From assembly GCA_030609135.1 (NCBI GenBank), contig JAUWCU010000002.1:4798-68797 (forward strand): a stretch of 64,000 nucleotides of DNA, given 5' to 3'. Every line of letters starts with the position of its first letter. The stretch's first letter is position 1. The notes below the pieces were generated by a model. That model searched no databases and had not been told where the DNA came from. It saw only the letters and a program-made list of their open reading frames with translations. The stretch comes from Candidatus Stahliibacteriota bacterium (lineage in GTDB: Bacteria; Hydrothermota; Tepidihabitantia; SM23-42). Below, piece after piece: positions 5,900 through 55,312 of the stretch. Both the position numbers and the translations under genes were made by a program.

Positions 5900-8176
5900 A
5901 TGAACAGATTCCTTAAAATCTTACTTGTAATCATAGGTGCAATCATCGTCATCCTGATTGTTGGCTATTTTCTGATAAAGAGTTACCTGACACCCAAAAC
6001 AGTACAAAATATTGCTGAAAAGGTTGCAACTGAGGCTATCCAATATCCAGTTGAGATCGGTCAAGTTGGTTTGCGTTTTGGATTCAAGGTGGGTATTACA
6101 ATAGACGATGTCAAAATACCCAATGCCAAAGGTTTTAGCCGTGAATCTATGGTCGAAATTGACCGAACCACCCTAAATTTAAAACTTCTGCCTTTATTGG
6201 GACGCCGGATAGTCATAAGTGGTCTGGATTTCTCAGGGATAAAGGTCAAAGTTGAAAGAAATAAACAGAACAAACTGAACTTCGCAGCTATCATACCCAA
6301 AGAAGCACAGGGCTCGAGTTGGTCACTATCTCTGTCTTCAGTCACTATTTCCCAAGGTAATGTATCCTATATTGATGCGTTGACCAAAACTGAAATAGAG
6401 GTTAAGGATATCGATCAAGAAATTAAGTTTCAAGGCAGCACGATATCTGCAACTGGTAAGAGCACGGTATACATCCTGAAAAACAAAACACTGCCAGAAA
6501 TAATAGTGAAAGTTGGCAATAACGTTGTGTACGATACCTTGGAAAAGGATTTCCAAATTAAGAAGCTTACAGCGTTGTACGACCCAGTACATCTTTTGAT
6601 TGATGGGACAATAAGCAACTTAGAGAAACTCGATATCGATGCCAAACTTAAAGTTGACGATATGTCAAAACTTACTACATTAATCCCTGCTAATTCACGT
6701 CCAGAAAAGCTTAGCGGCGTGCTTATCACAACATGTTCAGTAACCGGTAAAACTAAAAAGATTGTTGTTGCCGGGAACAGTAAACTCAAAAACGTATCTT
6801 TTACGCCAAAAGGATTGAACCGGGGATTTACAAAAATCCACGGTTCTTTATCATTTACGAGTAAAGCGATTAGAGATATATCACTACATGCGATGTTCGG
6901 AGATACGAAGCTGGAACTCAACGGAGCAGTAAGCAACCTTAACAACCCGATGTTGAACCTCAAAACCAAAGCAGTAGGAGATCTCCAAGATTTAGAGATG
7001 CTCACAACCGACATGAAAGATGTACAATTGAAAGGTCCACTTACCCTCAATATAACGATTAAAGGTAGCGCTGAAAAACCGTCATACCAAGGAAATTATA
7101 ATATAAGCAGCGGATTTATAAATGGCATCGGTTTAGCGAAACCGATAAGCAATTTTATTCTCAAAGGTACAATAGAAAATAGTGTTGCCAAAATAAATAG
7201 ATGTGGTGGCAGCATTGGGCGTTCTGATTTTTCATTGACCGGTAAGGTAACCAACTTTAAAAAACCAGTAATTGAAATCAACAATACCTCACATCTTATT
7301 GATCTTGACGAAATTCTACCAAAGCCAGAAAATCGCAAGCAACAACAAGGAAAGACAGCACCTATCACACTCCGTGGTAAGACCAAAATAAACAAGTTTA
7401 TCGGCGCAAACATGGAGTTCAGAAACATAAACACAAGTTTCTCCTATGAAAATGAAGTAATAGATTTGAGAAAATGTACGGCAGATGCTTTTGATGGCAA
7501 AGTGCAGTTTGATCTTTATTATAATGCAAATAGCCCTGAACCCTATCGTATCAACACGAAAATGACTTCGGTGTCGACCAAAAAAATTCTAAAACGCTTC
7601 TTGAATTTTGAGAATCTGGAAGGCAAACTAACTGGCGTCAGTAACTTCCAAGGCCGCGGTTTCAGTAAAAATGATGTTATCGCCAATCTCAGTGCCTCGG
7701 GTAATATCAAGTTAATTAACGGTGTATTCAGAAATTTCGATTTCATTACGAAACTCCTTGCTTGGCTCGGTATAAAAGACTACAAGATACTGAATTTCAA
7801 CAATTTGGTGGCCAATTTCAATATCGATAAGGGTAATACAAAAGTGAAAGACTGGGCCCTATCATCAAAAGTCGGTACTTTTCTTACAAATGGTTTCATA
7901 GGATTAAATGGAAACGTGAATTTGAACGTAACCACTACGCTCAAGAAGGAATACTCAGATATTGTGAAAAAGTACCACGGCGATTGGATATTCCCGATTG
8001 ATAATAAAGGACAGGCAACAATCGATATTAAGATCACCGGAAAACTCAACTCACCTAAATTCAGTCTTGATAAGGATAAAATTAAGCAACGCATCAAAGG
8101 TAAGTTGAAGAATGAATTCAATAAGAAAAAGAAAGAATGGGAAAAGAAACTGAAAGAATTACTGAAAGGGAAATGA
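5900..8176 (+). CDS. AsmA-family outer-membrane biogenesis protein
   Basis: 758 aa with an N-terminal TM anchor, a long beta-rich repetitive body and a lysine-rich C-terminus; AsmA/DUF748-like architecture. Confidence 0.65.
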   Translation: MNRFLKILLVIIGAIIVILIVGYFLIKSYLTPKTVQNIAEKVATEAIQYPVEIGQVGLRFGFKVGITIDDVKIPNAKGFSRESMVEIDRTTLNLKLLPLLGRRIVISGLDFSGIKVKVERNKQNKLNFAAIIPKEAQGSSWSLSLSSVTISQGNVSYIDALTKTEIEVKDIDQEIKFQGSTISATGKSTVYILKNKTLPEIIVKVGNNVVYDTLEKDFQIKKLTALYDPVHLLIDGTISNLEKLDIDAKLKVDDMSKLTTLIPANSRPEKLSGVLITTCSVTGKTKKIVVAGNSKLKNVSFTPKGLNRGFTKIHGSLSFTSKAIRDISLHAMFGDTKLELNGAVSNLNNPMLNLKTKAVGDLQDLEMLTTDMKDVQLKGPLTLNITIKGSAEKPSYQGNYNISSGFINGIGLAKPISNFILKGTIENSVAKINRCGGSIGRSDFSLTGKVTNFKKPVIEINNTSHLIDLDEILPKPENRKQQQGKTAPITLRGKTKINKFIGANMEFRNINTSFSYENEVIDLRKCTADAFDGKVQFDLYYNANSPEPYRINTKMTSVSTKKILKRFLNFENLEGKLTGVSNFQGRGFSKNDVIANLSASGNIKLINGVFRNFDFITKLLAWLGIKDYKILNFNNLVANFNIDKGNTKVKDWALSSKVGTFLTNGFIGLNGNVNLNVTTTLKKEYSDIVKKYHGDWIFPIDNKGQATIDIKITGKLNSPKFSLDKDKIKQRIKGKLKNEFNKKKKEWEKKLKELLKGK

Positions 8177-8185
8177 TAAGAAAAG

Positions 8186-8375
8186 GCAGGATCACTTCGT
8201 TCGCAGGATCATCCGCCTTTAGGCGGGATTCGCAGAAAACGCCATTTTTTAGCAAGCAGAGTGATATTGCAAGTTCCGCCATGTAAGGATGGCGAAACGA
8301 TACTGCAAGCCAAGACCATGGTCTTGGTGATACTGCGAGTTCCGCCCCTTTGAAAAAGGGCGGGACGATACTGCG
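8186..8375. repeat. Palindromic repeat array (GATACTGCRAGTTCCGCC-hairpin-GGCGGRACGATACTGC units plus CAGGATCAYYCG units)
   Basis: Two units, gatattgcaagttccgccatgtaaggatggcgaaacgatactgcaag and gatactgcgagttccgcccctttgaaaaagggcgggacgatactgcg, separated by the palindrome ccaagaccatggtcttgg. The same unit family occurs inverted at 32283-32476. It ends 7 nt before the mutM ATG. Confidence 0.55.
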
Positions 8376-8382
8376 TTTTATT

Positions 8383-9207
8383 ATGCCTGAACTCCCTGAA
8401 GTAGAGACTATCAAAAGAGAGTTGAAGCCCAAGATCATTAATAAAAAAATCCTGGCATGTATCGTTTTGCATAGTGATGTAATTGCATACCCAAAACCAA
8501 AGACATTTTGTAGAGCAATCATTAACGAAAGAGTGACTAATATAACGCGCAAAGCCAAATACCTACTTCTTGAGCTCACCAATGAAAAGAAAATTGTCTT
8601 CCATTTTAGGTTGTCTGGTACTATCTCATTGAGAAAACTGCACGTTAAACCTGAAGGTTTTACTAGGGTAATAATAAAGATCAACGGCTACCAGCTTTTC
8701 TTCAATGAACCAAGGGTGTTGGGTAGAATCTACCTTTTGAAAGGCAAAAAGAGATTGCCGTTTTTAAAAGGACTGTACAACCTCGGACTTGAACCGATTG
8801 CTGATGCATTCGACTTAGTCTATCTTCGCAACAAAATAAAAGGAAGAAAGGCAAAAATAAAAGCCTTGCTTCTTGACCAGAGTATCTGTGCCGGAGTCGG
8901 TAATATATATTCTGATGAAGCACTTTTCCATGCCGGAATAAGACCCTTGCGCCGTGCTAAGCGTATAACGACCAGAGAAACCGCAAAACTTGTAAGAACC
9001 CTAAAATACGTAATACAAAAAGGGATAGAGAATTACGGAACATCGGTTTCTGATTATCACCGAACCGATGGCAAAGATGGGAATTTTCAAAAACTTCTGT
9101 ATGTCTACGGCAAAGAGGATGAACCTTGTAAAGTCTGCGGGACAAAAATTGTCTTGGCGAAACTCGGCAACCGGTCCACTAGATACTGTCCTAAATGCCA
9201 GAAGTAA
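8383..9207 (+). CDS. mutM: Formamidopyrimidine-DNA glycosylase
   Basis: Starts MPELPEVE (catalytic Pro2/Glu3) and ends with the C-terminal zinc finger CKVCGTKI...RYCPKCQK. The ORF-track start at 8350 is an upstream extension running into the repeat array. Confidence 0.88.
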   Translation: MPELPEVETIKRELKPKIINKKILACIVLHSDVIAYPKPKTFCRAIINERVTNITRKAKYLLLELTNEKKIVFHFRLSGTISLRKLHVKPEGFTRVIIKINGYQLFFNEPRVLGRIYLLKGKKRLPFLKGLYNLGLEPIADAFDLVYLRNKIKGRKAKIKALLLDQSICAGVGNIYSDEALFHAGIRPLRRAKRITTRETAKLVRTLKYVIQKGIENYGTSVSDYHRTDGKDGNFQKLLYVYGKEDEPCKVCGTKIVLAKLGNRSTRYCPKCQK

Positions 9208-9210
9208 ATA

Positions 9211-9248
9211 CAAATTCCTAAATACCTAAAATCCAAAATGCCTAAAAT
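9211..9248. repeat. Mosaic repeat module (AAATACCTAAAATCCAAAATGCCTAAA)
   Basis: Reverse complement of the module present at 35895-35925 and 55215-55245. Confidence 0.45.
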
Positions 9249-9341
9249 TGTAGTCGCCCGATTTATCGGGCAATGTCTGATAAATCCCGCAATCCTATTT
9301 GTAGAATTATAATACGAAGCGGGATAAATCAGACAACTACA
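9249..9341. mobile_element. MITE-like hairpin repeat, copy 2 (full length)
   Basis: TGTAGTCGCCCGATTTATCGGGC at the left end and GTCTGATAAATCAGACAACTACA at the right end (about 23-bp imperfect terminal inverted repeats). Internal long inverted repeat GTCTGATAAATCCCGC...GCGGGATAAATCAGAC with a TATAAT-containing loop. Confidence 0.6.
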
Positions 9342-9381
9342 GTGCTATACTCTCTATTAAGTAACGGTGTATTGGAGTATG
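9342..9381. repeat. 40-nt direct repeat (copy a) flanking the MITE copies
   Basis: gtgctatactctctattaagtaacggtgtattggagtatg is repeated exactly at 9711-9750. Confidence 0.6.
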
Positions 9382-9584
9382 GGAGTAATCGTGTAAAACA
9401 GTTATTGAGTTATAAAAAACGTATCGTTCGTTTAATTCGTTATTATCGTTTAGATCGTTTCGTCCATTGTCTTCTGTTAAGATGGTTTTTTTACGAATAC
9501 GATATTCTTTGTTTCTTCGTTGATCTGGTTTTCTTGTTTCTTACTTCTCACTTCTCACTTCTTGCCTCTTATCTCGGTAGCTAC

Positions 9585-9632
9585 GGAGTGCAGTAGCTTG
9601 CTACTGCATGCAACGGCAAGCCGTTGCACTCC
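9585..9632. repeat. Nested palindrome / potential structured element
   Basis: Outer stem GGAGTGCA/TGCACTCC encloses two hairpins, CAGTAGC-TTG-GCTACTG and GCAACGGC-AA-GCCGTTGC, joined by CATGC. Confidence 0.4.
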
Positions 9633-9662
9633 ATCTACTCTCTACGCCCTACGTTCTTTATC

Positions 9663-9710
9663 GTAGTCGCCCGATTTATCGGGCAATGTCTGATAAATCA
9701 GACAACTACA
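9663..9710. mobile_element. MITE-like repeat, copy 3 (internally deleted short form)
   Basis: GTAGTCGCCCGATTTATCGGGCAATGTCTGATAAATCAGACAACTACA: same terminal inverted repeats as copy 2 with the central hairpin reduced to GTCTGATAAATCAGAC. Confidence 0.55.
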
Positions 9711-9920
9711 GTGCTATACTCTCTATTAAGTAACGGTGTATTGGAGTATGCGAGTATCAGAGGATATCGTATTCGTAAATCGTCCCGCAAAGCGGGATCC
9801 TCGATTTACCGATCATTATATGCATCAATATGAAAAATCGGGATGCATCGTACTTGTAATTTTGGATTAAAACGAATACGATTTACGAAATACGAGTACG
9901 ATTATCATCTCTGCTGTTTA

Positions 9921-9948
9921 TTGACAGCAAAAGAAAATTGACTATAGT
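9921..9948 (+). promoter_or_regulatory. sigma70-type promoter TTGACA-16-TATAGT, 7 nt upstream of the valS ATG (leaderless)
   Basis: TTGACAgcaaaagaaaattgacTATAGTtatgctaATGgatgag. Confidence 0.5.
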
Positions 9949-21346: not shown

Positions 21347-21393
21347 GTTACTGAGGAAAAAATGAAATGGTTCTCATATCATCCACGATATGA

Positions 21394-21442
21394 TGTAGTC
21401 GCCTGATTTATCAGGCTTTGTCCAATAAATTGGACAACTACA
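21394..21442. mobile_element. MITE-like repeat, copy 4 (short form) between ybeY and corC
   Basis: TGTAGTCGCCTGATTTATCAGGC ttt GTCCAATAAATTGGACAACTACA. Confidence 0.5.
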
Positions 21443-29351: not shown

Positions 29352-30656
29352 ATGAGAATTTTATTCTACAACCCGGCAACAACCCAGAAAAGATATGAGT
29401 CCTACGAGGCAATAAAGGGAAGCGCCTTTTTCCGCAGACCCAATTATGACGCAATGCGTCTTTCTTTCCTATCAAAAACACATGACTTCAGATATTATGA
29501 TGAACGTATTGAAAAAAAGCCCGAGTTCACACCCGATCTGGTCGTTGTCAACGTACCTCTTAACCTTTCGCGCTACGTTTCATCGACAATAAGAAAAAAC
29601 TGGCCGCGGGATACCAAGGTGATCTCATATGGATTCTTCCCAACGCTCTTTCCTGAACGCAACAAGAAATTCGCCGATAGTACAATAATCGGTGACGTAG
29701 CTAATATCTGGAAAAGAATTCTTGCACACGCAGAAAGCGGCAAGCTTTTAAAAGCCTACAACTCAAATCGGAAAGACCAGTTCAGCATTGACCGCACAAT
29801 TGAAATTAAGTATGGCTTAACCCCGGCGCTGTCACAACTGAAAACATCCTTTGGCTGCACGTGTCTCAAACGCAACAAGGATTTCTGCTATGAGAACATC
29901 ATGTACAAAAGACTGGTCCAGTGGGATCTCGACGAGGCAATCCATGCAGTCGCGCATATAAAGCGGAAAATTGTTTTCTTGCGTGATGATGACTTCTTCC
30001 ATGATATTGACTATGCAATTAACTTTCTAGAAAAGTGCTGGCGCTTCAAGAAAATGTGGATATGTCAAAGTACAGGACGATTGTTCGAGCACCCTAAATT
30101 GTTCCCTGTACTACGCGACAATGGCGTCCGCATCATACACCTAAAAGAAGACTGGTTAGGCAATGACCTGGTGTACAAAATTGATGACCCGGATTTCCTT
30201 AAGGATAAGAAGCGTCAAATCGAACTACTCCATAGTAACAGAATAGCATGTGGTCTTTTGTTGAGACTTGGTTTTGAAGGTGAAGATTTTACTTTCTATC
30301 GAAAATTGCTGAAGCTTCTTCTGAATGTTAAAGTCGATATGGTCAAGGTTACTGTTCAGACACCAATGCCGAATACTGAGACCTTTCGCCGATATCAAAA
30401 GGATGGTTTCATCGCACAAGATCTGACCCTCTACGATCAATGGATGCCGGTCGTTCAAATCCCGGGCATGAGCCCACAAGCCCTTTATTCATGGATGGAG
30501 TGGTTGCGTGATAGGTTCTATTCCTGGGATTCTATTCTCTACAGAAACATCTCGGTTTCACCAAGACTCGGTCTTTACAATACTATGCTGTTCAACCTTT
30601 TACCTAATCTTTCATATCGTAACAATTTCCTTGAGAAAGTGGGCTATCCGCCCTAA
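29352..30656 (+). CDS. B12-binding-domain/radical-SAM-like protein with a non-canonical cysteine motif
   Basis: The N-terminal Rossmann-like region (RILFYNP...) resembles the cobalamin-binding domain of class B radical SAM enzymes; TIM-barrel-like core and DUF4070-like C-terminus. In place of CxxxCxxC the sequence is GCTCLKRNKDFC (CxC-x8-C). Confidence 0.55.
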   Translation: MRILFYNPATTQKRYESYEAIKGSAFFRRPNYDAMRLSFLSKTHDFRYYDERIEKKPEFTPDLVVVNVPLNLSRYVSSTIRKNWPRDTKVISYGFFPTLFPERNKKFADSTIIGDVANIWKRILAHAESGKLLKAYNSNRKDQFSIDRTIEIKYGLTPALSQLKTSFGCTCLKRNKDFCYENIMYKRLVQWDLDEAIHAVAHIKRKIVFLRDDDFFHDIDYAINFLEKCWRFKKMWICQSTGRLFEHPKLFPVLRDNGVRIIHLKEDWLGNDLVYKIDDPDFLKDKKRQIELLHSNRIACGLLLRLGFEGEDFTFYRKLLKLLLNVKVDMVKVTVQTPMPNTETFRRYQKDGFIAQDLTLYDQWMPVVQIPGMSPQALYSWMEWLRDRFYSWDSILYRNISVSPRLGLYNTMLFNLLPNLSYRNNFLEKVGYPP

Positions 30657-31540
30657 TTACCGAGTATTTTTAACCGCGCTTCAGTTCTAACCAAATAATT
30701 TTTTGCACCTTCGTGAGTGGGTTGATACTTGAGGACAGTTTTGAGTAGAGATAAGGCGCCGTTGTAATCTTCGTCAAGAAATTTACTGACCGCGGTGCTA
30801 TACATCCTCTCTATCTCTTCAGCAGAAATCTTCGCAGTTTTGCTTTTTTGTTTACTTACGTCTTTCTTTTTTTGAAATAACCGTGAATCGGCTTCTTCCA
30901 TTTGTGCAAGTGCTGTCTCGTTGAGCGAATCGATAGCAACCACTTTGTTATAGTAATAATAGGCATCGGCAAGTTTGCCAGAATCTTCGAGCGCGCGGGC
31001 GTAGTCAAGTAGACTACCTATGCAGACTATCTTTTTCGCCTCGTATAGTTCATTAATACTGTCCCTGGTGGCAACAGGATAATCATATTTTTCAAGCGCG
31101 GCAATATATCGCTCGGCTAATGTGATTTCACCATTCTCAATGGCATTGTGAAATGCTTCCAGATAGATATTTAGAGAATCGGTTTGTTTTTCCAAGGCAA
31201 GGCGATCAAAAGTCTTTACCATGTCAAAAACAAATCGTTTACCTTCAGTACTTATTGCTATGGATTTTTTTAACATCTCGTAGTCTTCGGCTTCAAGAAT
31301 AAAAGCGTACGTATCTGGCTTAAGTGCAACGCAAAAACTGCTTCGTGTCGTCTTGAAAGACTGACCGAGTTCTTCAACCGTCACCTTGACTAATGGTATG
31401 GAATCATGAGTAAGCGAATCACGAATCACTGCAGAAACATTGATTGTTTCCGCCTGGAGAAATGCACTACTATATAGATCGCCGTTATTGAAAGATACAA
31501 TCAGTTGTGCGATCATAGCTAAAATTATCGATCTTAACAC
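30653..31540 (-). CDS. Secreted hypothetical protein with a TPR-like helical region
   Basis: 295 aa with an N-terminal signal/TM segment and an alpha-helical repeat C-terminus. Confidence 0.5.
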   Translation of the reverse strand: MLRSIILAMIAQLIVSFNNGDLYSSAFLQAETINVSAVIRDSLTHDSIPLVKVTVEELGQSFKTTRSSFCVALKPDTYAFILEAEDYEMLKKSIAISTEGKRFVFDMVKTFDRLALEKQTDSLNIYLEAFHNAIENGEITLAERYIAALEKYDYPVATRDSINELYEAKKIVCIGSLLDYARALEDSGKLADAYYYYNKVVAIDSLNETALAQMEEADSRLFQKKKDVSKQKSKTAKISAEEIERMYSTAVSKFLDEDYNGALSLLKTVLKYQPTHEGAKNYLVRTEARLKILGN

Positions 31541-31592
31541 TCACACCCCCTTCTACGATATTATAGTAAATAATAGTAAAAAATCAATAGAC

Positions 31593-32276
31593 CTATGCCA
31601 TGCCAAGATACTTGTGGACCTGAGGTATTATCCTCACATCATTTAGCCGCTCAAGTGCAGTTTTCTGAATATCGAGGATATTTGGTATAACACATTCAAA
31701 GACCGGCTGAATAATGAGTGGTATGTTCTTATCTACACCGACGATGATTTCACACACTTTGTCCAATTCCTGAGGCAATAGATTTTCATTAATCACCATC
31801 TTCACGAACACGTTTTTACAGGCGGCTATCTTAAGACATTTCTTATGTTCATTCCAGAGTTTGGGACGTCCAGTTGCCGTGGGGATCTTGAAATCCAGTG
31901 ATACCGTATTCATGTACTTAATGAGCTTCTTGAGTTTATCAGGCAAAGCACCGTTGGTGTCGAGGTAGATATCCTTTTTCATCTGACGAATACTCCTGCA
32001 CAACTCACCAAGAAAATCCATTTGCAGCAAAGGTTCACCACCAGTAATCGCGATTTCATCAGCATCCAGTTTATCAAGGAGGAAATCTACTTCAACCGGG
32101 TTAGGCGATAGTTCTCCAGCATAGACAAAAGGACCTTCCGTTTTTTGAGTGTTTGGTGTATCGCAATAATTGCAGGAAAGGTTGCATCCTAAAAATCTTA
32201 TAAAGGTCTGTCGCTTCCCCACCTTAATGCCTTCACCCTGGATAGATGTAAATATTTCTCTAATATAACCCTTCAT
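31593..32276 (-). CDS. queE: 7-carboxy-7-deazaguanine synthase
   Basis: MKGYIREIFTSIQGEG...GCNLSCNYCDTP is the QueE N-terminus with its CxxxCxxC cluster motif. Start set at the ATG at 32276; the 28-codon upstream extension in the ORF track runs through the repeat array. Confidence 0.8.
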   Translation of the reverse strand: MKGYIREIFTSIQGEGIKVGKRQTFIRFLGCNLSCNYCDTPNTQKTEGPFVYAGELSPNPVEVDFLLDKLDADEIAITGGEPLLQMDFLGELCRSIRQMKKDIYLDTNGALPDKLKKLIKYMNTVSLDFKIPTATGRPKLWNEHKKCLKIAACKNVFVKMVINENLLPQELDKVCEIIVGVDKNIPLIIQPVFECVIPNILDIQKTALERLNDVRIIPQVHKYLGMA

Positions 32277-32282
32277 GCAGAA

Positions 32283-32476
32283 AAACGCAGCATCATCCCT
32301 TTGGGATTCGCAGTACCACCCCGACAAAGTCGAGGTTTGCAGTATCGCCCCGCCATGCAAGAATGGCGGAACTTGCAGTATCGCCTTCGGCTCGCAATGT
32401 AAAATAAAAGAAAGCGTTTTCTGCGAACGTAGTGATCCTGCGAACGTGGTGATCCTGCGAGCGTAGCGATCCTACG
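32283..32476. repeat. Palindromic repeat array (inverted copy of the 8186-8375 family) including 17-nt tandem repeats
   Basis: gcagtatcgccccgccatgcaagaatggcggaacttgcagtatcgcc is the reverse complement of the GATACTGCAAGTTCCGCCAT...unit. The 17-mer TGCGAACGTRGTGATCC is repeated about 3.3 times at 32422-32476; the array sits between the queE ATG and the upstream gene stop. Confidence 0.55.
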
Positions 32477-33985: not shown

Positions 33986-34492
33986 CTAATTACCTAAGAT
34001 ACCGAGTTTCTTCTTCAAATATGGTATCAAACCATTGTTCGTAACTATCTTTAAAATAAAATCCGGCAGTTTCTTTGCTTTAATGATTTCATTAGTGCGC
34101 ATGTTTTTAATTATACCGATTAGTAGATCAATTTCAATATCATCGTTGTGCTCAACCTGCTGCGTAATCCCCGGCGCGATAATCACTGGCAGACCCAAAT
34201 TGATTGCATTCCTGTAGAAAATCCGGGCAAAGGTTTCCGCAACAACCGCTCTGACACCAAAATACTTAAGGCAAGTGGCGGCTTGCTCACGGGATGAACC
34301 GCAGCCGAAGTTCTTGCCGCCGACTATGATATCACCGGGATTTGCATTTTTCAGGAATTCAGGATGGACCGCTTCAAAACAATGCTTTGCCATTTCCTCG
34401 CGATCTGCAGTAATAGATAGATACTTACCCGGATAGATCACGTCAGTATTTATATTGTTGCCGAATTTGTATACATGTCCCTTAATCAACAT
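33986..34492 (-). CDS. leuD: Aconitase-family small subunit (3-isopropylmalate dehydratase LeuD-type)
   Basis: NTDVIYPGKYL...GKNFGCGSSREQA signature of LeuD/HacB small subunits. Confidence 0.85.
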   Translation of the reverse strand: MLIKGHVYKFGNNINTDVIYPGKYLSITADREEMAKHCFEAVHPEFLKNANPGDIIVGGKNFGCGSSREQAATCLKYFGVRAVVAETFARIFYRNAINLGLPVIIAPGITQQVEHNDDIEIDLLIGIIKNMRTNEIIKAKKLPDFILKIVTNNGLIPYLKKKLGILGN

Positions 34493-35742
34493 GGTTCAGT
34501 TATCTCCCCTTTCAGCGCTGAAGCCGCCACGGTCCCCGGTGAAGCCAGATAAACAAAAGCTTCCGGACTGCCCATCCGCCCCTTAAAATTGCGATTTGTC
34601 GTTGCCAGACAAATTTCTTCAGGAGCAAGTAAACCCTGATGTGCACCGAGGCAAGGTCCGCAACCTGGATTCAATACAAGTCCACCGGCTCGGACAAAAA
34701 TCTCAATATAGCCTTTATGTAGAGCCTCAAGATAGACTCTGCGTGAAGCCGGGATCACTAATAACCGGGTGTCTGGATGTACTGTTTTACCCTCTAAAAT
34801 CTCGGCTGCGGCAGCCAAATCTTCTAATCTCCCATTAGTACACGACCCGATTAATGCCTGGTCAATCTTTAGGCCGGTTATTTCACTGACCGGTTTGACA
34901 TTGTCAACTGAATGTGGACAGGCAACTTGACTCGTTAAGCTACTGACATTGATATTCAATTCACCACTATATTCAACATCTTGATCAGGTAAGATAACCT
35001 GGAAATGTTTATCGGTCCTCTTTTTTAGATACGCTATGGTTTGTTCATCCGGGGGCACAAACGCGACTTTTGCCCCCATTTCCATAGGCAGATTGGAAAG
35101 AACCATACGTGATGCGATAGTCATATGAGATATTGTTTCACCATGGAATTCTACTGCCTGGTAATTGGCACCATCCGCACCCAATATCCCGATAATATGC
35201 AAGATAAGATCCTTTGCCGTTACACAAGGTTTGAATTTCCCATCCACATTAATCTTTATTGATTCCGGTACGCGCAACCATAGTTCTCCGGTTGCCCAAA
35301 CGCCAGCCATTTCCGTAGCCCCAATTCCGGTTGCAAAAGTGCCAAAAGCACCATGTGTAGTTGTATGAGAATCAGTGCCTACTAAGACCTCGCCAGGTAA
35401 ATCATGCCCCAATTCCGCTAAAACCTGGTGACAAATCCCTTGTCTCAAATCATAGAAGTACTTGATCTGCTGTTCTTTTGCAAATGTCCGTAAACGACGA
35501 TGAGTAGCTGCGGTCCTTTCACTATCTGCAGGTATACGGTGATCGAATAGTATGACAATTCTCTCCTTATCCCAAACTTTTTTAACACCGATTTCTTTAA
35601 ACGATCTTAACACAACATCGGCATTTTCATGGGACATAGCCACATCAACTCTTGCCATAACAATTTCGTTAGGCGATACTACTTTTTTACCTGACGCTCT
35701 GGCTAAGATTTTTTCAGCAATCGTTTTATTCATAGAAATCAT
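34486..35742 (-). CDS. leuC: Aconitase-family large subunit (3-isopropylmalate dehydratase LeuC-type, short archaeal-type form)
   Basis: Fe-S cluster ligands and motifs VGTDSHTTTHGA, GSCTNGRLEDL, NPGCGPCLG. Alternative start at Met4 (MNKTIAEKIL). Confidence 0.85.
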   Translation of the reverse strand: MISMNKTIAEKILARASGKKVVSPNEIVMARVDVAMSHENADVVLRSFKEIGVKKVWDKERIVILFDHRIPADSERTAATHRRLRTFAKEQQIKYFYDLRQGICHQVLAELGHDLPGEVLVGTDSHTTTHGAFGTFATGIGATEMAGVWATGELWLRVPESIKINVDGKFKPCVTAKDLILHIIGILGADGANYQAVEFHGETISHMTIASRMVLSNLPMEMGAKVAFVPPDEQTIAYLKKRTDKHFQVILPDQDVEYSGELNINVSSLTSQVACPHSVDNVKPVSEITGLKIDQALIGSCTNGRLEDLAAAAEILEGKTVHPDTRLLVIPASRRVYLEALHKGYIEIFVRAGGLVLNPGCGPCLGAHQGLLAPEEICLATTNRNFKGRMGSPEAFVYLASPGTVAASALKGEITEPC

Positions 35743-35832
35743 TGTAGTCGCTCAATTCATTGAGCAGCCTGATAAATCCCGCAATCCTGTTTGTAGAATT
35801 ATAATACGAAGCGGGATAAATCAGGCAACTAC
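35743..35832. mobile_element. MITE-like repeat, copy 5 (full length), immediately abutting the leuC start codon
   Basis: TGTAGTCGCTCAATTCATTGAGC ... GCCTGATAAATCCCGC...GCGGGATAAATCAGGCAACTAC. The left terminal inverted repeat begins 1 nt after the leuC ATG (35740-35742). Confidence 0.6.
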
Positions 35833-35865: not shown

Positions 35866-36063
35866 ATCCGTCCCTTCGGTGATCTGGTTCATTTAGGTAT
35901 TTAGGCATTTTGGATTTTAGGTATTTGCTTTTTCTCCGGTACACCGTTACTCCCTTACGCCGTTTCCCCCAGTCTCCTTGTCCCCTTATCTTCAAAGATC
36001 CCCTGATCTCCTGACCCCACGTGTCTCCATGTCTCCGTTTCTCCATTTCTCTGTTTCTCCGTT
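35866..36063. repeat. Mosaic repeat modules plus five tandem octamers (GTKTCTCC / reverse-complement GGAGAMAC) ending at the ccl stop codon
   Basis: 35876-35985 share about 100 nt with 55195-55300 (gatctggttcatttagg...acaccgt.actccc.tacgccgtttccccc.gtctcc). 36020-36059 = gtgtctcc atgtctcc gtttctcc atttctct gtttctcc. Confidence 0.5.
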
Positions 36064-36828
36064 TCATTTCGTAATGTCCCGCTCCCATGGTCCATCATAG
36101 GTAACTTCTTGTTCACACATACGACGCATAGGCTTCTGCGTCGTCATTTCCTCGTACACATGTGCGATAAGACCAGCACATCGACCAATTAAAAAGAAAG
36201 CTTTACCGAGTTTCCAATCAAACCCCATATCTGATATGATCGCAGCGATTGCTCCATCGACATTTATGGGTAATGCTTTGCCCTCAGCGAATTCTTCTTT
36301 CAGCGCAAGGCTCAGCTTTATATGCTCTTTAGTGATTTTTAAATCATCAGCCATTTCATAGAGCCGTTTGGTTCGGGGGTCGTTTTTATGGAGGCGATGA
36401 CCAAACCCGGGCATGCGTCTACCCTGCTTTTTAAGAGTCTTTAGTAGTGTCTGAGCAGTTCTTTCATAATCCCACTTTTCCTCTTGCCTTTTCTTTACCC
36501 AATTCTGTAAAATGCGTGCACCATCTTCAATTGCTCCACCGTGGACATCACCAACTGCCAAAATCCCTGCAGCAACTGCACTAGGCAAAGGTACACCAGC
36601 TGAGGCAACGATGCGCGCAGCGTGTGTTGAGGGTGGAGTAACACTGTGGTCAATTGAGGAAGTAATGATTGCATCGATCATTTTCGCTTCTTTTTTATCC
36701 GGCATTCTTCCTCTTATCAGAAGAAAAAATACTGAACTAAATGGTATATTACCGATAAGGTCTTCCTGACGATAGCCGCGTGTTACAATATTATCTGGTT
36801 CAACCTTTGAAATCTTTGTTTGCCACAT
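36064..36828 (-). CDS. Citrate-synthase-like short protein, candidate citryl-CoA lyase (Ccl-like; equivalent to the AclA C-terminal domain)
   Basis: 254 aa containing the citrate synthase signature GFGHRLHKNDPR and catalytic His/Asp region but lacking the N-terminal half of a true citrate synthase. Lies directly downstream of SucC/SucD-like genes. Confidence 0.6.
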   Translation of the reverse strand: MWQTKISKVEPDNIVTRGYRQEDLIGNIPFSSVFFLLIRGRMPDKKEAKMIDAIITSSIDHSVTPPSTHAARIVASAGVPLPSAVAAGILAVGDVHGGAIEDGARILQNWVKKRQEEKWDYERTAQTLLKTLKKQGRRMPGFGHRLHKNDPRTKRLYEMADDLKITKEHIKLSLALKEEFAEGKALPINVDGAIAAIISDMGFDWKLGKAFFLIGRCAGLIAHVYEEMTTQKPMRRMCEQEVTYDGPWERDITK

Positions 36829-44003: not shown

Positions 44004-45401
44004 CTATTTCATCTTCACAACCCGCACAGGCTTGAAACTCTTGTCTTCAGGGATGAAAAAATAAACCCCGGCAGAAAGACCAAAACCGATTTTATCCCCA
44101 GAATAACTACCAACCTGTCTCCCCATGATATCATAGAGAATAAAGTGTTCCCTTTCACAACCGAGAGCGGATGCAAAAGAAACAAATGGATTAGGAACAA
44201 CTTGTAAATTTGACGTGTAAGGTCGATGCCAAGCACTATTATTATCCTCGATCCCTGTATTTCCATCCGCATCGGTTTTGACAAGATAAACCTGACGCTG
44301 ATTTCCGAATGAATACGTAAACCCGGCGATGATATACCCACCATCTGTGGTCTGCTGGACAGAGTAGCTGCCATCGTTGGAGTTCCCGCCGTAGCATCTT
44401 ATCCATTGATCATTACCAAGAGAATCGATCTTTGCTACGTAGGCACTACCAAGCCCGAGAGCATCGGTATATCCTGCAACGATATACCCTCCATCAGTAG
44501 TCTGCTGAATACAAAATCCCTGTTCATAACCCTGACCTGATATCACCCCATACCCTCTGGTCCACAAAGTATCCCCGAGAGAATCAGTCTTTATGAGATA
44601 GACATCTTCATTGTTACTCGATATATACCAGTAGTATCCCGCGATGATATATCCACCATCTGTGGTCTGCTGGACAGAGTAGCCTTCTTGTACATTCGCA
44701 ACTCCTCTTTGGTATCTCCCTGTCCAGAGTGTATCACCAAGAGAGTCGGTCTTCACCAGGTAGACATCGTTTCCTATCATCCCCGCTGCAATATAACCCC
44801 CATTCTGCGTCTGCTGAACTGAATAGCCATTGTCATCGAAATTTCTAGTCCATAGAGTATCTCCGAGAGAGTCGGTTTTGATAAGGATAAAGTTACCTTG
44901 ACGGTCACAATAATCCCACCAATAAGGACCGCCAACAATAATATACCCTCCATCAGTAGTCTGCCGAACACAATTCCCACATGAGGCACCTCCATATGTT
45001 TTAGTCCATAAAGTGTCTCCAAGAGAATCGATTTTAACAAGATAAATATGTTCATTATTTCCAAAAGAAGTAGTGTAACCGGTGATGATATAGCCTTCAT
45101 CAACGGTTTGCTGGACAGAGTAGCCCCAATCTCTCCCTGTCCCTCCATAGATCTTAGCCCAGAGCGTATCTCCGAGAGAATCGGTCTTCACCAGGTAGAT
45201 CTGGTCGCTATCTCCATAAGAACTAGTATATCCTACCACTATATAGCCACCATCTGTGGTTTGGTCTACAGAACGACCTTCCTCATAGCCCGCCCCTCCA
45301 TAGTTCCTCTCCCACATCAGTTGAGAAAAACCTGTGCCTGCAAAGACCATGACAAGCAGCACCCAGAGCACAAGCCGAAGTGGATTAAAATCTTTTTCCA
45401 T
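44004..45401 (-). CDS. SBBP beta-propeller-repeat surface protein with a T9SS-type C-terminal sorting domain
   Basis: Signal peptide, then about 9 repeats of ...GG.G.D.GYSVQQTTDGGYIIAGYT.S.G....YLVKTDSLGDTLW...; the C-terminus ...GVYFFIPEDKSFKPVRVVKMK resembles Por-secretion CTDs. Confidence 0.7.
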   Translation of the reverse strand: MEKDFNPLRLVLWVLLVMVFAGTGFSQLMWERNYGGAGYEEGRSVDQTTDGGYIVVGYTSSYGDSDQIYLVKTDSLGDTLWAKIYGGTGRDWGYSVQQTVDEGYIITGYTTSFGNNEHIYLVKIDSLGDTLWTKTYGGASCGNCVRQTTDGGYIIVGGPYWWDYCDRQGNFILIKTDSLGDTLWTRNFDDNGYSVQQTQNGGYIAAGMIGNDVYLVKTDSLGDTLWTGRYQRGVANVQEGYSVQQTTDGGYIIAGYYWYISSNNEDVYLIKTDSLGDTLWTRGYGVISGQGYEQGFCIQQTTDGGYIVAGYTDALGLGSAYVAKIDSLGNDQWIRCYGGNSNDGSYSVQQTTDGGYIIAGFTYSFGNQRQVYLVKTDADGNTGIEDNNSAWHRPYTSNLQVVPNPFVSFASALGCEREHFILYDIMGRQVGSYSGDKIGFGLSAGVYFFIPEDKSFKPVRVVKMK

Positions 45402-45794: not shown

Positions 45795-46307
45795 TTATTC
45801 ATTATGGTTTTTCTTCTTCAGATAATCAAGTAAGCCGCCCGCCTTCATGATTTTCATTTCAAGCGGTGTAATAGCGATGCCTTGATAAACCTTATTCTGT
45901 GATAAATTAGTGATTTTACCATTTTCAATGTTAACCTCAAGCCGGTCTTTCTGTTCAATCTCCCCGGTTCTATCAAATAGCACAATCGGTAAACCAGTAT
46001 TAACCGCATTTCTATGGAATATCCTGGCAAAAGACCTGGCGATCACAAGAGAAACACCAATACCATGGATACCTACAGTCGCATGCTCACGTGAAGAACC
46101 GCAGCCGAAATTCTTGCCGGCTACAATAATATCACCCGGTTCCACGTTTTCTATGAATTCTTCCCCGCCAGGCGCGCCTTCCATAGCATGGAGCGCCATT
46201 TCCTGCTTGTCAGTAATGGGCAGATACTTACCCGGATATATCTGGTCAGTATCAATATCATCTCCAAAGCACCATACCTTTCCTTTAATTATCACATTAC
46301 ACCTCAC
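45795..46307 (-). CDS. Aconitase-family small subunit, second copy (LeuD-type)
   Basis: DTDQIYPGKYL...GKNFGCGSSREHA. Confidence 0.85.
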   Translation of the reverse strand: MRCNVIIKGKVWCFGDDIDTDQIYPGKYLPITDKQEMALHAMEGAPGGEEFIENVEPGDIIVAGKNFGCGSSREHATVGIHGIGVSLVIARSFARIFHRNAVNTGLPIVLFDRTGEIEQKDRLEVNIENGKITNLSQNKVYQGIAITPLEMKIMKAGGLLDYLKKKNHNE

Positions 46308-55109: not shown

Positions 55110-55165
55110 TCAATAAGTTATTCAGTTATCAGGTCATTATGTCACTGAGTCATTAAGTCATTTTT
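55110..55165. repeat. Tandem octamer array (RATGACYN x about 7) immediately upstream of the truA start
   Basis: Minus-sense reading aatgactt aatgactc agtgacat aatgacct gataactg aataactt attgaATG. Confidence 0.45.
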
Positions 55166-55312
55166 TACGAATACGATATTCTCCGTTTCTTCGTTGATCT
55201 GGTTCATTTAGGCATTTTGGATTTTAAGTATTTACTTTTTCTCCAATACACCGTCACTCCCCTACGCCGTTTCCCCCGGTCTCCGTGTCTCCAGCAAAGC
55301 GTGTTCATTCCG
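55166..55312. repeat. Mosaic repeat modules (TTTACGAATACGATATTCT... and CATTTAGGCATTTTGGATTTTAAGTATTT...CCGTTTCCCCCGGTCTCC)
   Basis: 55161-55205 matches 9487-9535; 55195-55300 matches 35876-35985; a reverse-complement partial copy lies at 9211-9248. Confidence 0.5.

Follow-up and report, generated by a model that had tools for sequence, protein, structure and literature searches.

A 64,000-nt stretch of the genome of Candidatus Stahliibacteriota bacterium (hereafter, the window) carries palindromic repeat arrays directly upstream of two unrelated genes, mutM and queE, which raises the question of whether such arrays are leaders dedicated to these genes or elements that have settled in front of them. 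The first-pass annotation, made from the sequence alone, favoured the former and considered the arrays to be REP/BIME-like elements co-opted as 5′ regulatory structures.

Each array fills the gap between two co-oriented genes

Read directly from the sequence, both arrays were located where they had first been described, at window positions 8186-8375 and 32283-32476, and each was found to take up the whole same-strand gap of its junction, AsmA|mutM and DUF366|queE, respectively (Table 1). At both loci the upstream gene is on the same strand and the array starts 5-9 nt past its stop codon, while the last core of the array is 8 nt (mutM) or 10 nt (queE) away from the ATG. In agreement with the original description of starts lacking a Shine-Dalgarno sequence, no AGGAGG-like motif was found between the last core and the ATG at either locus. 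Both start codons are supported, the former by the same 274-aa length in MutM homologues and the latter by the same position being kept in the related contigs L102, L117 and L144; an exact look-up of the window MutM protein gave no match on record. The motif GATACTGC is enriched in the window, with 8 occurrences vs. 1.2 expected, a number reached in none of 100 shuffles, and five of the eight are inside the two arrays. Likewise, GATACTGCRAG with at most one mismatch had 8 matches in the window vs. 1.3 expected. Strict and loose pattern searches of the window found no further copies of the family beyond the two loci.

The two arrays had been described as reverse complements of each other. They do pair as inverted repeats in a repeat search of the window (54 nt at 78% and 26 nt at 92%), but only through the opposite strands of the two genes, and in gene orientation they are colinear. 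Both share a layout in which a left arm of inverted units containing GCAGGATC is followed by a short A/T-rich centre, bordered by degenerate cores, and then by a right arm. The right-arm module consists of GATACTGC, the dinucleotide RA and a hairpin of variable sequence, after which the next core begins (GATACTGC-GA-GTCCCGAAGGGAC is one example of a core + GA + hairpin module), and the arm closes with a terminal core followed by (R)TTTT. The left arm contains three 17-nt units at queE, and two cores with one hairpin at mutM; on the opposite strand, left-arm units are modules of the same type, made of GATCCTGC, RA and a mini-hairpin such as AC-GTA-GT. The 17-nt tandem repeat noticed at the second locus was recovered by Tandem Repeats Finder (32421-32473, 3.1 copies). 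The other repeat units proposed at first sight are present but have to be read differently: the TTCCGCC...GGCGG palindrome is one of many interchangeable hairpins, the conserved unit being the 8-nt core and RA, and the "CAGGATCAYYCG" units are no separate unit but the same module inverted (GATCCTGC-RA-minihairpin on the other strand).

Table 1. Features of the two arrays and of the genes next to them (window coordinates; locus 2 is described in gene orientation).
Feature	Position	Strand	Remarks
AsmA/YhdP-like gene	5900-8176	+	Pfam
AsmA stop codon	8174-8176	+	Locus 1 left arm begins 9 nt beyond
Locus 1 left arm	8186..8239	+	GCAGGATC at 8186-8193 and 8203-8210
Locus 1 left-arm hairpin ATCCGCC-TTTA-GGCGGGAT	8211-8229	+	
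Locus 1 degenerate inner core GCAGAAAA	8232-8239	+	
Locus 1 A/T-rich centre	8240..8262	+	Position of the PF05635 gene in full-length relatives
Locus 1 right arm	8263..8374	+	Cores GATATTGC 8263-8270; GATACTGC 8299-8306, 8329-8336, 8367-8374
Locus 1 right-arm end-anchored hairpins	8273-8298, 8309-8328, 8339-8366	+	Each core, then RA
GTTTTATT and mutM ATG (8383-8385)	8375..8385	+	Without Shine-Dalgarno motif
mutM/Fpg	8383-9207	+	Pfam
DUF366 gene	33039-32482	-	Pfam
DUF366 stop codon	32482-32484	-	5 nt from end of locus 2 left arm
Locus 2 left arm	32421..32476	-	Three 17-nt units CGCAGGATCACYACGTT
Locus 2 left-arm cores	32434-32441, 32451-32458; 32468-32475	+ (reading)	GATCCTGC (first two); GATCCTAC (third)
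Locus 2 centre	32392..32420	-	Degenerate inner cores and A/T-rich TTTCTTTTATTTTACATTGCGA
Locus 2 right arm	32287..32391	-	Cores GATACTGC 32382-32375, 32346-32339
Locus 2 right-arm variant cores	32317-32310; 32294-32287	-	GGTACTGC; GATGCTGC
Locus 2 right-arm hairpins	32383-32391, 32347-32372, 32318-32336, 32295-32307	-	First one GCC-GAA-GGC
GTTTTTCTGC and queE ATG (32276-32274)	32274..32286	-	Without Shine-Dalgarno motif
queE, radical SAM protein	32276-31593	-	Pfam; homologues named QueE

A family of core-plus-hairpin modules in WOR-3 and Stahlbacteria

A scan of 185,579 species-representative genomes with the pattern GATACTGCRAGN{12,42}GATACTGCRA returned at least 114 loci. Among the 114 matches listed, at least 41 are WOR-3-type loci with a shared architecture; they derive from at least about 20 metagenome-assembled genomes (MAGs), most of them labelled candidate division WOR-3 or Candidatus Stahlbacteria, a few just "bacterium" and one Neomarinimicrobiota. 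In the same set of listed matches, the end-anchored stem of the inter-core segment averaged 5.9 in the 41 WOR-3-type loci vs. 1.24 in the other 73, and with this mean stem the listed matches from other phyla are at chance level. Nearest to the window among the matches listed are L102 (Stahlbacteria CSMAG_2384, ~84% nucleotide identity) and L117 (WOR-3 RS_18_8, ~70%). All comparison sequences used here are MAGs or metagenome contigs.

The core of the module is the 8-nt GAT(A/C)CTGC, followed by RA and then by a hairpin, free in sequence, which ends exactly at the next core. In 176 distinct inter-core segments the hairpin always starts 2 nt past the core: at this offset the mean stem length is 4.94 vs. 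1.17 in shuffled segments, while offsets of 0, 1, 3 and 4 give at most 1.6. The stems of these segments contain 761 Watson-Crick, 79 G:T and 8 A:C pairs, and GNA accounts for 36 of their 73 triloops and TNC for none. Since G:T pairs greatly outnumber A:C pairs and GNA triloops occur without TNC, the structure is maintained on the strand reading GATNCTGC. C(GNA)G triloops form unusually stable DNA mini-hairpins, e.g. d(GCGAAGC), and their occurrence here is a hint, and only a hint, toward single-stranded DNA. The ends of the element read AAAYGCAG...CTGCRTTT.

Some elements contain, in or near the centre, a conserved insert of ~120 nt (CCCGTTAAATAAT...GTGGTAAAAACCAC...TTGTATTTTACAGGGCGAGC) that has no open reading frame and is common to several species; it is carried by L018, by the third array of L058 and the first array of L089, and partly by L013, L070, L122 and L128. 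A search by eye for a promoter-like conserved motif in element centres yielded only the loose TYGCAAAAGA...GCGAGCC.

Modules read outward from the centre on the strand that bears the hairpin signature

The arrangement of modules was "<<<>>>" in 49 of the 50 clusters examined and ">>><<<" in none, the one exception (L081) being "<<<><". The modules of both arms read outward from the centre and the arms are mutual inverted repeats. When elements are oriented by the PF05635 gene described below, left-arm modules occur on the bottom strand only (9 G:T, 1 A:C) and right-arm modules on the top strand only (18 G:T, 0 A:C). This strand-specific bias in G:T over A:C pairs and in triloops indicates that each arm is optimised on its outward-reading strand, and for the left arm such optimisation would not be needed by an RNA acting only in the sense transcript. 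Where the left arms of the window and L102 differ, the changes compensate each other on the bottom strand (AC-GTG-GT to GC-ATA-GC).

RNAfold predicts that whole elements fold better than shuffled controls (z = -4.3 and -3.6), the left cores being paired with those of the right arm. Pairing of a typical left core (GCAGGATC) with a typical right core (GATACTGC) leaves one G-A mismatch, and the match between the arms is therefore not obviously optimised.

Full-length elements carry a PF05635 gene between the arms

In four elements (L012, L029, L030 and L043) the centre holds a gene for a protein of ~128 aa that matches PF05635 (E = 1e-28) and TIGR02436, and the closest solved structure to this protein is 2GSC, XCC0516. 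[quoted passage not shown] The order in a full element is host gene stop codon, left arm, PF05635 gene, right arm and next host gene. Scanning metagenomes with the PF05635 protein revealed 18 relatives (L122-L139) at 62% identity or more, every one of them between arms, with the left arm directly before the ATG, the right arm directly past the stop, and the stop codon of a same-strand host gene upstream. PF05635 is the sole gene type seen between the arms. More distant PF05635 genes from other lineages, at 50% and 31% identity, are flanked by inverted arms of other short tandem repeats. Literature searches found no account of flanking repeats around PF05635, S23p or four-helix-bundle genes located outside rRNA.

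Gene-bearing and gene-less forms hold the same junction in different species. At accC the gene is present in L012, L030, L122, L126, L135 and L136 and missing from L058, L119 and L097, and at the mcm junction it is present in L043, L130 and L132 and missing from L032 and L058.

The window contains 8-nt periodic repeat arrays (ATTTAGGT-type and CGTTTCTC-type) at 9212-9246, 35891-35926, 36020-36065, 55110-55162 and 55180-55292, which resemble the short-repeat arms of the distant PF05635 genes, although tblastn found no PF05635 gene in the window. Of these arrays, 9220-9246 is the exact reverse complement of 35900-35926, and an 87-nt block at 35899-35985 recurs at 55206-55292 with 90% identity.

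Elements precede many unrelated genes

The genes found downstream of elements, named from N-terminal translations, include accC, both methylmalonyl-CoA mutase subunits, etfB, thiolase, a DUF35-like gene, alanine dehydrogenase (ald), an MvhD-like gene, queE and mutM. The position of the unit relative to start codons, proposed with the original description as a check, was read from the related loci: the GATACTGC arm very often abuts a same-strand start, but the genes concerned are unrelated and convergent gaps are occupied too. Among elements between same-strand genes, about 20 point their GATACTGC arm at the start of the downstream gene, covering at least 13 different junctions, and about five have the opposite orientation (L013, L027/L081, L057 and L088/L108). 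These figures give a trend and not exact numbers, since genes were called by simple open-frame tests and orthologous junctions were counted too. Gaps between convergent genes hold L025, L070 and L091. L094 probably belongs with them, judging from a reverse-strand stop 7 nt beyond its right arm. No clear case of placement between divergent genes was seen among the clusters examined. Selection for some influence on the gene downstream might account for this bias in orientation.

The downstream start codons fall into two classes, one 6-10 nt past the last core and without a Shine-Dalgarno motif, to which both window loci belong, and the other 19-33 nt past the last core and with AAGGAGG. Scans for sigma-70 promoters and intrinsic terminators found none in either array. 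In Rfam searches of the whole window at the gathering threshold and of both arrays at E ≤ 10, only tRNA and chance-level matches were obtained, in keeping with the earlier remark that no known riboswitch consensus is recognisable.

In L027 and L081, the outermost repeat of the element overlaps the start codon of the host gene (ATGCAGGATC... = M Q D L...), and the element end may thus supply or overlap the start of a neighbouring gene.

The element comes and goes at the mutM and queE junctions

At the mutM junction, five syntenic loci (L003-L007; MutM identity 75-77%), which represent two distinct MutM proteins with four of the five loci sharing one, have a 13-nt spacer. Partial arrays occur at this junction in L001 and L002; one left-arm unit is present in an 86% relative, and the left arm together with a decayed last hairpin in a 93% relative. 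At the queE junction, the two genes overlap in a GTGA stop/start in L143, L145 and L146. In L144, a contig that matches the window at 93-96% identity over 4.7 kb, the element is missing and the genes are separated by 14 nt that include AAGGA.

Elements that are present at the queE junction, one swapped hairpin aside, are 92% (L102) and 94.5% (L117) identical to the window copy, vs. 53% and 28% identity, respectively, at four-fold degenerate sites of queE. The window element is thus more similar to the copy of the more distant host, L117, and its centre is identical to that of the L117 element in spite of a coding identity of only 68-73%. As judged from these comparisons, recent horizontal spread to the same junction fits the pattern better than an ancient insertion kept under constraint. 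Alternatively, near-identity of the element across species could mean strong functional constraint and not recent spread.

No target-site duplication was readable from empty vs. filled mutM and queE junctions, the flanks of which are not alignable, and no parent IS with matching ends was found. The case for mobility comes from distribution only, because neither a transposase or recombinase nor a readable target-site duplication was identified and no excision product was seen.

Between queE and the next gene, the window has ~930 nt (30662-31591) with a 295-aa ORF (30653-31540, minus strand) giving only a weak TPR match, and the 93-96% identical L144 has only ~25 nt there. The 730-nt mutM-valS spacer (9208-9937) is packed with repeats, including a 65-nt duplicate at 9323-9387 and 9692-9756, and contains an unannotated 107-aa ORF (9273-9596) without a Pfam match; in relatives this spacer measures 317-567 nt.

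Insertions or regulators

Cumulatively, our comparisons demonstrate, at the level of sequence, a dispersed family whose presence at a junction differs between close relatives, and in which inverted arms are combined with a PF05635 link, sense insertion past stop codons and hairpin maintenance on the outward strand of each arm. We consider it likely, with a probability of roughly 0.7, that both window arrays are gene-less, non-autonomous members of this WOR-3/Stahlbacteria family of inverted-arm mosaic elements, that is, IVS-like mobile cassettes co-transcribed in operons. The best reading of the mutM and queE arrays is that they are polymorphic insertions between genes and not dedicated regulators, a regulatory role being neither shown nor needed. 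The co-option as 5′ regulatory leaders suggested in the first-pass annotation finds no support, given that the family is associated with many unrelated genes, is absent from the same junctions in relatives and has members bearing PF05635.

It is very improbable that the arrays are leader RNAs dedicated to the cis-regulation of mutM and queE, be it as riboswitch, attenuator or thermometer-like structure, even though they stop 8 and 10 nt ahead of starts without a Shine-Dalgarno motif, the G:U-compatible pairs of right-arm hairpins are on the mRNA-sense strand and three species have a highly conserved element at the queE junction. Such a leader should not be missing at the same junctions in close relatives, among them a 93-96% identical contig, nor precede at least 13 unrelated gene types and also sit between convergent genes; furthermore, with interchangeable hairpin sequences nothing like a conserved aptamer core is left, the hairpins of the left arm are optimised for the antisense strand, and there is no Rfam match. 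A selfish insertion that was later put to use as an intercistronic mRNA element (an RNase III processing site, a stability barrier or a translation uncoupler) and kept by selection at some junctions would agree with several observations: the position is always intergenic and mostly within operons, in the sense direction, the predicted fold is closed by a terminal stem, the queE-junction copy is conserved far beyond synonymous sites, there are two downstream spacing classes (6-10 nt without Shine-Dalgarno; 19-33 nt with AAGGAGG), and RNase III excises 23S rRNA intervening sequences that contain an S23p gene (PMC4990558). We nevertheless regard this as unlikely, because presence and absence among near-identical relatives speaks against necessity, and because the closer match of the window queE copy to that of the more distant host suggests transfer and not constraint.

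Spread of a classical REP/BIME by RAYT (a REP-associated Y1 transposase of the IS200/IS605 type) would agree with intergenic palindromes in both orientations, a copy number that varies between relatives, and the single-strand hairpin signature of G:T over A:C and C(GNA)G triloops. We hold it to be remote, since REPs conserve a palindrome with a GTAG head whereas in the present family conservation lies in a linear 8-mer and the palindromes differ, modules within an arm are tandem and same-sense instead of alternating, and the gene between the arms is PF05635 and not a Y1 transposase. Short direct repeats with variable segments between them might also bring to mind a CRISPR-like array, degenerate or in miniature, or a tandem repeat that codes for protein, either of which can for practical purposes be discounted. 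The repeats are only 8-11 nt long (vs. 23-50 nt in CRISPR), the "spacers" are repeat-anchored palindromes, whereas those of CRISPR are unique and non-palindromic, and the arrays of 2-5 units are found at many loci and divided between two inverted arms; the open frames that run through the arrays are artefacts.

Based on the insertion reading, the arms would be the cis-acting ends of a selfish IVS-like cassette that lands right behind stop codons in sense orientation and relies on read-through transcription by the host, a mode that would resemble that of 23S rRNA intervening sequences with S23p. Recognition of the ends probably involves single-stranded units of core plus hairpin, with the PF05635 protein, supplied in trans, as a possible binder. 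In the operon transcript, the arms could pair core to core, with a terminal stem of 12-14 bp, and the predicted closed multi-hairpin fold may be an RNase III substrate or may just be tolerated. At mutM and queE, such an insertion would have split formerly coupled genes without forming any purpose-built leader, the window copies being putative non-autonomous derivatives of the gene-bearing cassette. A secondary effect on translation of mutM and queE is possible; both lack a Shine-Dalgarno motif and have lost tight coupling.

A broader hypothesis, which we put forward tentatively and at clearly less than even odds, is that PF05635 genes are the cargo or effector of widespread, site-selective mobile cassettes that would home into operon stop/start junctions as well as rRNA, with outward core-plus-hairpin arrays serving as single-stranded ends and gene-less copies, both window copies included, being mobilised in trans. 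The presence of 92-95%-identical elements at one junction in three species with saturated synonymous divergence, together with a near-identical strain without the element, is in line with ongoing horizontal homing.

Relation to known elements

REP/BIME elements of enterobacteria and pseudomonads are intergenic palindromic mosaics in both orientations, often in operons, which can affect mRNA stability. The present family is likewise intergenic, palindromic and mosaic, occurs in both orientations, varies between relatives and is often within operons, and the initial label of REP/BIME-like is apt in the broad sense of a dispersed palindromic repeat family. It does not extend to the anatomy, as there is no conserved 20-40-nt palindrome with a GTAG head; instead the palindromes vary, the linear GAT(A/C)CTGC and RA are conserved, the "<<<>>>" polarity is fixed, the link is to PF05635 instead of RAYT, and the core is conserved across a phylum.

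Pneumococcal BOX, Neisseria Correia and mycobacterial MIRU elements are MITE-like, modular and non-autonomous, lie in intergenic regions of operons and are co-transcribed, and the orientation of MIRU follows the operon. Our family shares with them the modular, putatively non-autonomous nature, the variable number of internal units and the placement in intergenic regions of operons; it differs in that no transposase-derived terminal repeats or target duplication are recognisable and in that the gene of the parent element codes for a four-helix bundle instead of a transposase. Integron cassettes combine a promoterless gene with attC, an imperfect palindrome with conserved ends, a variable centre, structure on one strand and oriented insertion. 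A gene accompanied by imperfect palindromes, with structure selected on one strand and oriented insertion, is found here as well, but there is no integrase, the arms flank the gene on both sides, the modules are far shorter and tandem, and the copies are dispersed rather than gathered in one array.

The closest parallel is provided by the 23S rRNA intervening sequences with S23p (Leptospira, Coxiella, Xanthomonas and Brucella), where a sense PF05635 four-helix-bundle gene resides inside a host transcript, inverted terminal repeats bound the gene and fold into a stem (in our family, a predicted one), and short tandem repeats, whose number varies between strains, adjoin the gene. Gene-less versions exist too, and the sequences are regarded as selfish with the means of moving unknown (PMC4990558). 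In Coxiella, the S23p gene lies between terminal inverted repeats with a 28-bp stem and a variable number of heptamer repeats, and the sequence is excised by RNase III, its mobility being unknown (PMC4990558). Both the nature of these intervening sequences and the role of the S23p/PF05635 protein have been open since the early 1990s (PMC4990558). Unlike them, both window copies and every related one are located between protein-coding genes and not in a 23S or 16S rRNA helix, the element is multi-copy in a genome, and its arms are arrays of core-plus-hairpin modules, not one long stem. The PF05635 gene in the loop is shared by L012, L029, L030, L043 and L122-L139, the two window copies being without it.

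In this family, genomes have many copies in protein-coding operons, the arms are anatomically clear, forms with and without the gene share sites, and near-identical relatives provide empty ones. It is suitable material for asking whether such elements move, what their ends are and whether the PF05635 protein binds these ends. The annotation of WOR-3/Stahlbacteria genomes is affected as well, as gene callers extend open reading frames into the arrays, e.g. in the 233-aa QueE call P0121.

Other repeats in the window

A second dispersed repeat family, consisting of ATTGTAGTC, the hairpin GCCCGAT-TT-ATCGGGC and ...GATAAATCAG(A/G)CAACTACA, has a GTAG head as in classical REPs and occurs in both orientations at 342-381, 729-762, 9247-9286, 9660-9699, 21392-21431 and 35741-35780. 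In small ORFs of the window near repeats, Pfam found nothing relevant. A 465-aa ORF on the minus strand (44004-45401) has 6-7 internal repeats of ~150 nt and is probably a repeat-domain protein unrelated to the element family. Finally, 34281-34491 and 46081-46294, ~11.8 kb apart, are 73-79% identical and lie inside ORFs 33986-34492 and 45795-46307, which are likely to be paralogous genes.
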